NCBI GenBank assembly: GCA_947628555.1 | Contig: CANRAI010000001.1 | Span: 1 to 62,639 of the forward strand | Direction: 5' to 3' | DNA from: an uncultured Clostridia bacterium | Lineage (GTDB): Bacteria; Bacillota; Clostridia; Christensenellales; Borkfalkiaceae | Length of the DNA: 62,639 nt | Shown here: positions 16,264-42,078 of the stretch, piece after piece | Layout: every line of letters starts with the position of its first letter | How positions within the stretch are numbered: position 1 is the first letter of the stretch | The notes under the pieces: model-generated | The model's input: only the letters and a program-made list of their open reading frames with translations | What the model was told of the DNA's origin: nothing | Database searches by the model: none | Translations under genes and position numbers: made by a program

Positions 16264-16294
16264 ATGCGCCTTGAAAGAACTTTTCAAGGCGCAT
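16264..16294 (-). terminator. terminator hairpin closing the long minus-strand gene train
   Basis: 13-bp perfect stem ATGCGCCTTGAAA / TTTCAAGGCGCAT. It lies 26 nt downstream of the stop at 16320 and has A/T-rich flanks on both sides. Confidence 0.6.
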
Positions 16295-16319
16295 AATTTT
16301 CATTTAGTTTTAAACCGTT

Positions 16320-18470
16320 TCAGCCGTTCAGCGCGGCTTCTATTGCTGGACGGAGATCGTCCTTGCCCGCATTGATAATTGCGCCCTGTCTTACGAAAGT
16401 TATTATTCCCTCCGCGTTGGCCACAAGCGTTATGGGATAGGATGACTTACCTCCGCATCTGGTGAATATTTCGTCGCGCATATCCTCGAATCTTCTGTCT
16501 TGGCCGAAGATAATCTGCCAGTTTGACCAAGAAGATTTATTGTTCTTTTCGTTGATTGCGTCGATGAAATATTGAGGATTTTCATCATTGTTCGCATGAA
16601 TGGCTACCATTACTATCCGGTCGCCGTATTCCTCTTTGACCTGTTCGAAGTAAGGAAGTTCTTCAACGCAAGGTCCGCAACTCGTGTACCAGAAGTTGAG
16701 CACGAATACCTTTCCGAGCGCGTCTTTCGAGGAGAATGTTCCCTCTTTGTATGCGCTTTCATACGTATTTACGGTAAAGTCCATGATTTTATCGCCTACG
16801 ACATACCGGGTATCCTTTTGAACCGCCTTTAACTCTTCCTGTATTTCCTCAACCGCAAGCGGGCGGTTGTGGCGGGAATAGAATCTGGCGTTTTCGTTCA
16901 GAAAGACCGTCGTGGGGAACGAGCCGTCGCCGCCACATTCGGCGTATAACCCGATATCTTTCGTATCCTGTATAAACGGTATATCGTATTTGTTCCAGCC
17001 CTCGCTGTCGATTATGCCCTGAACGATTTCTGCGGTGTCGCTGTTTTCTATGTGCACGGCAACCACTTTCGCCGTATCTTTAATCTGTTCTTGAATTTCG
17101 CCCAAAGACGAAAGATAAGTTTTACTTGCTTCGTTGCGCGAGCTCCAAAATACCAGCACGGCGGGTTTTCTGTCGGATTCATAGTCTTGATAGAAATTGT
17201 ATTCGTCGCCGCCGTAAGCCGTAACGTAAGTCTTTGCAGTGAAATCTTCGATTTTCGCGCCTATCGTCGTAAGCGACGAGGGCTGAATGTTGTAATATAC
17301 AATCGCGCCTACGACAACCGCCGTGGCAAGCACCCAGGCAACCGCTTCCAAAATGAAAGCGCGCTTATTCAGCCTTTTCAAAGCAGTTTTGAATTTGCTT
17401 TTGGACGGCGCGGTTTCGGTTGAATTACCGTCATTAACGCTTTCGGGCTGAGTTACGGGTGTCTCTTCGGCAGGTCCTTCCGTTGCCGCATGTGCGACAG
17501 CCGTCTCCGCAGCCACGGTTGTGCCGTTTGTAAGCAATACGTTAAGCGGCTTGATTTCCTCTGCGGGCGCGCCGTTCGCCGCAGACACGGAAACGGACGT
17601 AGCTTTAAGGAATATCTTGCTGCCCTTCCAACTTATCGCCTTTGTGGGGCAAACGCTGATACATTCGCCGCAGTTGATACATTCGTGGTCGCCCACGTGC
17701 TTAATATCCATTTTACAATGGGCTATACATGCGCCGCAGTCGATACATTGGCTTTTATCCAGCTTAACGCCCAAAAGCGCAACTTTGTTAAAGAAACCGT
17801 AAATCGCGCCGAGCGGGCAAATAAAGCGGCAGAACGCCCTGTAAACAAACACGCAAGCCACAATGCAAACGACCAGAAGAATGGATTTCCAACTGAAAAG
17901 ATATCCGAGCATCGCATACAAGTCGGAGTTGCCGGCGTTCGATAAAAGTCCGCCCGCTCCGCCGAACGTGCCCGCGGGACAGATATATTTACAGAATCCG
18001 GGAACATTGTGATAGATAAGCGGCACGGCTATGACAAGCACTATCAAAAATACGTATTTAAGATAGGATAAAAGCCGCGTATATACGCTCTTTTTGACCT
18101 TAGGCGTTCTTACCTTGTATAAAAGTTCCTGGAAGAAGCCGAAAGGACACAAAAATCCGCATATCGTTCTGCCTAATGCAAGTCCGAAAAGGGCGATAAT
18201 TCCGATTATATAATACGGAGTAGTAGTTCCCGAAGAACCGAGCGAATTTTGCAGCGCGCCCAAAGGGCAGGCTACGACCGCGCCGGGACAGGAATAGCAA
18301 TTCAAACCCGGGGTACAAAGCTTTTTTGTGTTGCCCGTATAAATCTGACCTTCGGCGAAGCCTTTAAGGTTTGCGTTAGTAAGTAACGCCGCGTAAACCT
18401 GAATTATTCTCCGACGGGTGGGCAAGTGGTTTTTGAACCAGCTTCCTATTTTAATAAAAAATTGCTTCAT
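16320..18470 (-). CDS. NapH/MauN-like membrane polyferredoxin fused to two thioredoxin-fold (TlpA/ResA-like) domains
   Basis: 716 aa. The N-terminal multi-TM region carries CxxCP-type motifs (CYSCPGAVVACPLG, CKYICPAG, CRFICPLG). Two 4Fe-4S motifs follow (CIDCGACIAHC, CINCGECISVCP), then an extra TM helix. The first Trx-like domain lacks CxxC (VLVFWSSRNEAS). The second has WYTSCGPC, with its Cys codons at 16668-16679. Confidence 0.75.
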   Translation of the reverse strand: MKQFFIKIGSWFKNHLPTRRRIIQVYAALLTNANLKGFAEGQIYTGNTKKLCTPGLNCYSCPGAVVACPLGALQNSLGSSGTTTPYYIIGIIALFGLALGRTICGFLCPFGFFQELLYKVRTPKVKKSVYTRLLSYLKYVFLIVLVIAVPLIYHNVPGFCKYICPAGTFGGAGGLLSNAGNSDLYAMLGYLFSWKSILLVVCIVACVFVYRAFCRFICPLGAIYGFFNKVALLGVKLDKSQCIDCGACIAHCKMDIKHVGDHECINCGECISVCPTKAISWKGSKIFLKATSVSVSAANGAPAEEIKPLNVLLTNGTTVAAETAVAHAATEGPAEETPVTQPESVNDGNSTETAPSKSKFKTALKRLNKRAFILEAVAWVLATAVVVGAIVYYNIQPSSLTTIGAKIEDFTAKTYVTAYGGDEYNFYQDYESDRKPAVLVFWSSRNEASKTYLSSLGEIQEQIKDTAKVVAVHIENSDTAEIVQGIIDSEGWNKYDIPFIQDTKDIGLYAECGGDGSFPTTVFLNENARFYSRHNRPLAVEEIQEELKAVQKDTRYVVGDKIMDFTVNTYESAYKEGTFSSKDALGKVFVLNFWYTSCGPCVEELPYFEQVKEEYGDRIVMVAIHANNDENPQYFIDAINEKNNKSSWSNWQIIFGQDRRFEDMRDEIFTRCGGKSSYPITLVANAEGIITFVRQGAIINAGKDDLRPAIEAALNG

Positions 18471-41979: not shown

Positions 41980-42049
41980 ATCCTTTACCGGGTTTTTGGA
42001 TTTCCGCGTTAATACGGATTATTGCCCTATTATCATAAAGTATGAAATC

Positions 42050-42078
42050 ATTATACTATTAGTAGAGAAAAAATTCAA
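42050..42078 (-). promoter_or_regulatory. putative sigma-A promoter of the giant-gene train
   Basis: Minus strand reads TTGAAT, a 17-nt spacer, then TATAAT. It lies about 70 nt upstream of the ATG at 41979, which has an AAGGA SD. Confidence 0.5.

Follow-up and report, generated by a model that had tools for sequence, protein, structure and literature searches.

Whether a long run of co-oriented genes forms one functional unit, or several units that merely lie side by side, is the question raised by a gene train in a 62,639-nt window of DNA (the whole stretch analysed here; contig CANRAI010000001.1, GenBank assembly GCA_947628555.1) from an uncultured Clostridia bacterium of the Borkfalkiaceae. 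According to the listing of open reading frames (ORFs), the train comprises 11 ORFs, all on the minus strand and spanning positions 41979 to 16320, each preceded by a Shine-Dalgarno-like sequence, with ten junctions of 67, 12, 10, 25, 8 and 3 nt, an 8-nt overlap, and 39, 30 and 1 nt. Along this order, family searches identified a protein with Glug motifs, a protease combining Peptidase_S8, PA, fn3_5, Big_2 and LRR_5 domains, a substrate-binding protein (SBP; SBP_bac_5), the transporter components OppB, OppC, OppD and OppF, and a Fer4_5 protein with thioredoxin-like domains. An initial annotation of the stretch had counted twelve ORFs, although its own gene list and ten junctions also give eleven; its junction sizes were all exact, and its domain calls, lipoboxes, tail anchor and C-terminal CxxC were upheld by Pfam, NCBIfam and sequence features. 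The train is probably best explained as three modules of differing evolutionary stability: a proteolysis-import core, a GLUG-motif lipoprotein as accessory, and an appended redox pair.

The core emerged from a comparison with about 100 related loci, comprising 25 genome-derived loci (L001–L025) and 80 metagenome loci encoding NapH-like proteins. The closest relative, L001, belongs to a rabbit-gut Clostridia metagenome-assembled genome (MAG) with 89.5% nucleotide identity to the window, and further relatives are MAGs labelled Christensenella or Ca. Coproplasma, all from animal guts. The giant gene encoding the subtilase with leucine-rich repeats (S8-LRR) adjoins the lipoprotein-SBP-OppBCDF string in 13/13 loci in which that side is visible, lying immediately upstream of the importer string in L001, L002, L005, L007–L011, L013, L021, L022 and L025, and downstream of OppF in L003. 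The string of S8, lipoprotein, SBP, OppBCDF and a small protein recurs in L001–L011, L013, L014, L021, L022 and L025, with SBP identities of 31–85%, and the protease-Opp linkage first noted in the window is thus retained in related genomes down to 31% SBP identity. The best-supported part of the reading is a protein-foraging unit in which a surface protease would be coupled to a dedicated importer, most likely of peptides.

The protease (28629–36122, minus strand; 2497 aa) contains a Peptidase_S8 domain at residues 220–733 with a PA domain (545–608) within it, followed by fn3_5 (764–894), Big_2 and eight BspA-type LRR_5 stretches. Its matches in the Protein Data Bank (PDB; E 2e-67 to 2e-46) include the C5a peptidase (7edd, E 2e-67) and SpyCEP. 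The catalytic residues D229 (in DTG), H302 (HGxHV) and S673 (GTSMA), together with the oxyanion residue N383, align with those of 7edd in the order typical of subtilases, and all four are conserved in 13 orthologues. On sequence grounds, the enzyme is a subtilase of the PrtP/C5a-peptidase (cell-envelope proteinase) family with an intact triad, and proteolytic activity is predicted. It starts with a signal peptide and ends in a transmembrane (TM) helix (2469–2487) with a basic tail; this TM-plus-basic-tail anchor is found in all orthologues, none of which has an LPXTG motif, and the NCBIfam LPXTG-peptidase subfamily scored only 229 bits vs a cutoff of 1400. The initial annotation had suggested that redox proteins encoded further downstream might service a Cys-rich LRR domain. 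The subtilase has 25 cysteines among its 2497 residues (1%), and those of the LRR region occur singly, one per repeat at the consensus position F..C..L and not as disulfide pairs, which gives no support to such a need.

The importer has the make-up of an Opp/Dpp (PepT) system, with a family-5 SBP, two BPD_transp_1 permeases and two oligo_HPY ATPases, all encoded on the minus strand. The oversized substrate-binding lipoprotein (24512–27157; 881 aa) is followed by an OppB-type permease (23488–24486; BPD_transp_1 132 bits, best match Opp4B), an OppC-type permease with an additional N-terminal TM helix (22280–23479; OppC_N and BPD_transp_1), and OppD-type (20942–22276) and OppF-type (19750–20949) ATPases, both with ABC_tran and oligo_HPY domains, OppD carrying an N-terminal extension. 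The giant SBP belongs to a family of 989 homologues (E up to 1e-10) with lengths that all fall within 835–933 aa. Its AlphaFold model, with a pLDDT (predicted local distance difference test) of 87 and a pTM (predicted template modelling score) of 0.82, shows an ordinary cluster-C SBP fold into which a mostly helical segment is inserted at residues ~165–400. Foldseek gave NikZ as the top match, and NikA, AppA from Bacillus, OppA from Lactococcus, EppA and GbpA among the others. As these structural neighbours bind peptide, nickel, EDTA and glutathione, the fold does not single out a ligand, a point that counts against the peptide reading; what argues for peptide as the ligand is solely the protease neighbourhood. 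An importer of nickel or a metallophore, glutathione or oligosaccharide, with no substrate-product relation to the protease, would fit the many ligand classes bound by family-5 SBPs, the presence of NikZ, NikA, EppA and GbpA among the top Foldseek matches and the scores of the NCBIfam Opp, Nik and Gsi equivalogs, which all remain under their cutoffs, and a thiol-redox neighbour would suit glutathione or cystine-type substrates. We nevertheless consider such a role very unlikely, given that the protease is a constant neighbour at every locus where that side can be seen, that peptide systems typically have OppC_N and oligo_HPY, and that Lactococcus OppA and Bacillus AppA match the structure no less well.

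Both ATPases carry a C-terminal cysteine cluster in the oligo_HPY region with the spacing CX5CX6CX15-17C, formed in OppD by Cys400/406/413/431 (CX5CX6CX17C) and in OppF by Cys300/306/313/329-331. In E. coli DppD and DppF the same spacing binds a [4Fe-4S] cluster (PMC12136057), and the importer itself is therefore probably redox-sensitive. Directly after OppF lies the gene for an 87-aa tail-anchored protein (19447–19710, minus strand) with a Lys-rich N-terminus and a C-terminal TM helix, which matches no family; homologues sharing the motif MNVEGxxWY and the C-terminal TM helix are encoded after OppF in L001, L005, L007–L009, L011, L013, L014, L016, L019 and L020, making this protein a conserved companion of this Opp subtype. 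Between protease and SBP, a 482-aa lipoprotein (Lipo482; 27168–28616, minus strand; lipobox IAGC) is encoded, which has no match in Pfam or NCBIfam beyond weak similarity to Peptidase_M26_N (E 0.017) and to the GLUG protein (E 0.003), although 795 representative homologues were found. In the relatives, some lipoprotein gene fills this slot between S8 and SBP. A role of Lipo482 as a PrtM-like maturase was considered but gained no support, as the protein matches neither a peptidyl-prolyl isomerase (PPIase) nor any other family and has just the weak GLUG/M26_N-like motif.

In lactococci, the surface proteinase PrtP produces peptides for the oligopeptide permease Opp. The core described here resembles the PrtP/PrtM and Opp systems of lactic acid bacteria in combining a subtilase of the same family (S8, PA insert, Fn3-like) with an Opp importer served by a lipoprotein SBP, and in having a lipoprotein gene beside the protease gene. 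It differs from them in that protease and importer constitute one contiguous, deeply conserved gene string, in that a C-terminal TM helix, and not an LPXTG or S-layer-type element, anchors the protease, which carries ~1000 aa of BspA-type LRRs, and in that the neighbouring lipoprotein lacks a PPIase domain of the PrsA/PrtM type. In addition, the SBP is ~350 aa larger than in the lactic-acid-bacterial Opp, and the tail-anchored small protein and, in this clade, the redox pair are attached. In the model that we propose for the core, the subtilase, tethered to the surface by its C-terminal membrane helix and provided with BspA-type LRRs, would cleave extracellular proteins, Lipo482 and the oversized SBP would catch the released peptides, and OppBCDF with the small tail-anchored subunit would import them; the substrates, and any physical coupling of these products, are predictions from gene order and domain content.

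A different use of the same machinery would be interaction with the host, with the S8-LRR protein acting as a C5a peptidase/SpyCEP- or IgA-protease-like enzyme on immune or mucosal proteins of the host, the LRR and GLUG/M26_N proteins as adhesins, and Opp recycling or sensing the products. The nearest solved structures are indeed those of the C5a peptidase and SpyCEP, BspA-type LRRs and GLUG/M26_N motifs are known in adhesins and IgA1 proteases, and the gut origin of all relatives would be in keeping with such a role. The likeness to the C5a peptidases ScpA/ScpB and SpyCEP concerns the catalytic domain with its PA insert and the Fn3 domains; unlike the enzyme studied here, those proteases are LPXTG-anchored virulence factors that act on a narrow set of host substrates and have neither an LRR region nor an adjoining importer. 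Nutritional lactocepins belong to the same protease family, however, and a nutritional role leads one to expect the close and deep conservation with a dedicated importer, so that a locus devoted to the host appears unlikely to us, even if the two roles can coexist.

The first gene of the train is set apart from this core by its distribution. It encodes a giant lipoprotein with GLUG motifs (36190–41979, minus strand; 1929 aa from the GTG; Pfam Glug 34 bits), with a signal peptide and the lipobox AVAC; translation likely starts at an ATG at 41973 instead of the GTG at 41979. Homologues form ~90 clusters and are found only in Coproplasma-like Clostridia. The gene adjoins S8-LRR in L001, L021, L022, L025, L023 and L024, and in the first four of these it lies 5′ of the S8 gene. 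In L002 and L005, other genes occupy its position, so that it is absent from at least these two loci. The GLUG lipoprotein is thus an accessory confined to one subclade, and would serve at the surface as a binding or scaffold protein.

The last two genes form the redox pair. The first of these (18472–19416, minus strand) encodes a 314-aa polytopic membrane protein whose C-terminal 38-residue domain (residues 278–314) matches the CD1871A family of CXXC proteins (NF040920, 37.3 bits vs a cutoff of 32); the only invariant cysteines of this family are the CTEC pair in the terminal NICTECIGLG. In the relatives, the CXXC gene is always found immediately 5′ of a NapH-like gene, usually overlapping it or 1 nt apart. 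As a separate observation, the CXXC gene and oppC share a 64-nt direct repeat with 80% identity (19361–19424 vs 23424–23487) that includes the ribosome-binding site and the ~20 initial codons of each, so that OppC and the CXXC protein begin with a near-identical TM helix (MNxLLAxGALAAPxIVLIIL). This N-terminal extension is missing from the CXXC proteins of more distant relatives; the repeat, common only to the window and L001, therefore has the appearance of a local duplication or gene conversion of recent date.

The second gene (16320–18470, minus strand) encodes a 716-aa fusion of a NapH-like polyferredoxin, a TM helix and two thioredoxin-like domains (Fer4_5 58 bits, cutoff 22; AhpC-TSA 60 bits; Thioredoxin_8). 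An exact-sequence lookup of this protein gave no record, and its context was drawn from homologues, of which there are >4600, mostly annotated as "4Fe-4S binding protein". The NapH part contains CxxxCP motifs and two 4Fe-4S motifs, and 18/18 of its cysteines are invariant among 120 homologues, as is CGPC598-601. In the same set, the first thioredoxin-like domain never has a CxxC, the CGPC being found only in the second. A TM helix at residues 373–391, as judged by hydropathy, precedes the thioredoxin domains, which were modelled with a pLDDT >88 and resemble ResA/StoA; from these features we infer an orientation that would place them outside the membrane. The model of the NapH domain was unusable (pLDDT <50), and a PDB sequence search found no relative of this membrane part; its topology was consequently taken from hydropathy and knowledge of the family, which weighs against the explanation proposed here. 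The protein is not an orthologue of NapH by family score (TIGR02163, 65.5 bits vs a cutoff of 213; PRK09477, 43 vs 234), and no nap genes were found near the NapH-thioredoxin gene.

NapH-like proteins are regarded as modular transmembrane electron conduits (PMC8238504). The fusion resembles the NapH/NosH/PceC-type proteins (Méheust et al., eLife 2021, PMC8238504) in its Fer4_5 domain, CxxxCP motifs, two [4Fe-4S] sites and modular association with an extracytosolic mediator; unlike in those systems, the mediator is a fused thioredoxin instead of a domain that binds flavin mononucleotide (FMN) and is flavinylated by ApbE, and there is no respiratory reductase partner. A second parallel is found in DsbD/CcdA with ResA/TlpA/StoA, where the shared feature is the proposed transfer of reducing equivalents across the membrane to a tethered thioredoxin-fold domain with a CxxC. 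The likeness is functional only, as neither protein of the pair matched the DsbD/CcdA families in Pfam or NCBIfam, and the membrane part is here an Fe-S protein of the NapH type (Fer4_5) that is partnered by a CXXC protein, for which reason the electron path would run via Fe-S clusters and not as a pure thiol-disulfide cascade. By analogy with NapH-like conduits and with ResA/TlpA, the polyferredoxin would accept electrons on the cytoplasmic face of the membrane and, with the CXXC protein as its partner, pass them to the fusion's own extracytoplasmic CGPC thioredoxin domain, thereby operating like DsbD/CcdA-ResA. In a separate observation, genes for a NusG_II-domain protein, an ApbE flavin transferase and Lgt (42744–45414, minus strand) were found immediately 5′ of the train, on the far side of a tRNA-Ser gene. 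The usual role of ApbE is in NapH-like systems that contain FMN-binding domains (PMC8238504); in the NapH-like protein of the window, the thioredoxin domain stands in place of an FMN-binding domain, and none of the latter was seen.

How firmly the redox pair belongs to the Opp genes depends on the lineage. It adjoins Opp in L001, L013, L014/15, L016/17, L019 and L020, and for 9 of the 28 closest homologues of the fusion, contigs equal in length to those of giant-SBP homologues suggest that the two lie on shared contigs. In L023 and L024, where NapH and thioredoxin are separate genes, the redox genes lie divergently beside GLUG, S8-LRR is convergent, and Opp is lacking within 10 kb. A separate lineage, represented by L058–L060, is an independent case of pairing with peptide-type uptake genes: here a redox trio follows V-ATPase genes (L058 9602–18553, also L059 and L060) in the order thioredoxin, a 65-aa CD1871A protein (a short form, 44 bits in L058) and a 277-aa NapH-like protein, and after a 231-nt gap come DppD/F, an SBP, DppB/C and a PepQ-like peptidase. 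In L026, Opp-like ATPase genes are encoded on the opposite strand at a distance of ~8 kb. As a module, the redox pair is autonomous and widespread, and it is joined to Opp only in this clade.

It could accordingly be asked whether the train consists of independent operons (GLUG; S8-Opp; CXXC-NapH-thioredoxin) that are merely co-oriented, with the redox pair serving general thiol homeostasis of the envelope and the adjacency being inherited backbone synteny in one family. Several observations weigh in this direction and against a single unit. The redox module is autonomous and very widespread, and among the 80 metagenome NapH-like loci neither GLUG nor the giant SBP was found (0/80) and a partial S8 in one (1/80). 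Seven loci (L002, L003, L005, L007, L009, L010 and L011) lack the pair downstream of Opp, and L018 has the pair without Opp. An L-serine dehydratase alpha-subunit gene (SDH_alpha) on the opposite strand lies between Opp and the pair in L016/L017 (7763–9043), L019 (7705–8979) and L020 (7784–9064), which excludes co-transcription of the two in those loci. Its absence from many loci, and the gene that intervenes at others, argue that the pair is dispensable and not always co-transcribed. Furthermore, large thioredoxin surface proteins, and not Opp, recur near the pair in L013, L014, L018, L019, L023 and L024, and a strong hairpin follows GLUG within the train, as detailed below. On the other side, the junctions at the redox end (39, 30 and 1 nt) contain no terminator-like site in the window, L001, L013 and L014, the redox genes remain by GLUG and S8-LRR after rearrangement in L023 and L024, and a peptide transporter neighbours the module independently in L058–L060; in L001, moreover, the synteny break comes after the NapH-thioredoxin gene and not ahead of it. 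Having weighed both sides, we regard fully independent operons as possible but somewhat unlikely.

Two side observations concern these same neighbourhoods. The opposite-strand serine dehydratase gene is also found upstream of the CXXC-NapH pair in L018 (2584–3861) and is a constant neighbour in one subclade. The large thioredoxin/redoxin-domain proteins (907–1014 aa, one of them with a SpaA domain) are encoded within a few kb of the pair in L013 (16518–19523), L014 (16909–19857), L018 (9369–12194), L019 (16529–19351), L023 (2543–5266) and L024 (1–2456), and may be the real clients of the pair; no homologue of them was found in the window.

Predicted transcription signals neither divide nor join the train. 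A promoter-like site (TTGAAT-17-TATAAT, 10/12 consensus matches) is found on the minus strand at 42078–42050, ~65 nt 5′ of the first gene and as claimed by the initial annotation, its role being predicted from the motif, and a second one with an extended -10 lies farther upstream at 42431–42403. Past the last gene, a bidirectional terminator-like hairpin (16263–16295, either strand) has a predicted folding energy (dG) of -25.2 kcal/mol and a z of -6.8. The initial annotation had described this as one strong hairpin, and its existence was borne out; the description is incomplete, since the hairpin is equalled in strength by a 13-bp stem-loop without a U-tract in the 67-nt gap between GLUG and S8 (36148–36179, minus strand; dG -26.2 kcal/mol, z -5.0). 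The sequence of this stem-loop is identical in L001, and L022 has a different GC hairpin at the same position; it could act as a partial terminator or as a stabiliser of an mRNA 3′ end, perhaps setting the expression level of the first gene apart. Ahead of the train, an Rfam search of 41900–42560 to E 1 found no T-box, riboswitch or other leader, and the 5′ untranslated region folded no better than shuffled sequences. In comparison with shuffles, promoter-like and terminator-like sites numbered 17 vs 18.4 and 21 vs 18.7 expected in 15500–29000, and terminator-like sites 26 vs 20.1 in 28000–43500; promoter-like sites in the latter stretch, which takes in the upstream intergenic region, were in excess by ~3 standard deviations (sd; 35 vs 21.3, sd 4.2). 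It is because these counts are mostly shuffle-like that the motif scans are indifferent to the question.

The behaviour of the train as a block is clearer. Nucleotide homology to L001 stops at window position 16324 (L001 20846), within the last codons before the stop at 16320–16322 and short of the terminal hairpin, and the genes downstream differ from those of L001. In L022 (1–9732), the whole train occupies the opposite side of the NFACT-trigger factor-ClpP-ClpX-Lon backbone. It keeps together as one block while its flanks change, and the end of the L001 homology and the position in L022 together imply that the cluster moves as a unit. The single self-contained module proposed by the initial annotation is therefore retained in part: S8 and Opp are syntenic and the train stays intact, whereas the redox pair is autonomous and GLUG is dispensed with in some relatives. 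The same applies to the redox link, which is missing beside Opp in seven relatives and kept beside GLUG and S8-LRR in the Opp-less L023 and L024.

Within the three-module reading, a functional link between the redox pair and Opp is favoured by how closely the genes are spaced in the window, L001, L013 and L014, by the persistence of the redox genes beside GLUG and S8-LRR after rearrangement, and by the independent peptide-transporter neighbourhood of L058–L060. In this clade, the pair is probably co-transcribed with the Opp genes. Appended to Opp in this way, it would provide reducing power at the surface, the most plausible use of which would be to open disulfides in substrates or peptides, the other being to keep exposed thiols reduced. 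A bolder proposal is that the CXXC protein and the NapH-thioredoxin fusion represent an as yet unrecognised, DsbD-independent route by which anaerobes export reducing power from cytoplasmic ferredoxin or Fe-S clusters to an outside thioredoxin, and that in this clade the route is wired to a surface machine in which host or dietary proteins rich in disulfides (such as mucins and immunoglobulins) are first reduced and afterwards cleaved, the peptides being imported via the oversized Opp. We put this forward tentatively and think it rather unlikely to hold in full.

The catalytic parts of the cluster all belong to known families and it is their arrangement that is new, along with the unannotated accessories Lipo482, the 87-aa protein and the long CXXC protein; the NapH-thioredoxin fusion is likewise uncharacterised. 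In a literature search, no paper turned up that mentions CD1871A, or that describes this cluster or a protease-Opp operon of Coproplasma or Christensenellales. The Christensenellales-like group is common in animal guts, uncultured and functionally opaque. A conserved, linked protease-importer unit would suggest protein foraging as a core trait of this group, and would offer concrete targets in the protease, the giant binding protein and the small Opp companion. Interest in the redox module extends further, as its family counts thousands of members whose annotation goes no further than binding of an Fe-S cluster. If the pair is a transmembrane thioredoxin reductase, it would help to explain extracytoplasmic thiol handling in strict anaerobes without DsbD/CcdA-type systems.

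The remaining observations concern the surroundings of the train. Downstream and convergent with it, a 427-aa ORF (14908–16191, plus strand) encodes a protein with an N-terminal TM helix and eight cysteines, for which Pfam gave no match and the 25 genome-derived loci no homologue. Farther along, a tmRNA gene is located at 1986–2378 (minus strand, 113 bits). On the other flank, the tRNA-Ser(GCT) gene (42540–42630, plus strand) has its own near-consensus promoter-like site at 42482–42510, divergent from the train.

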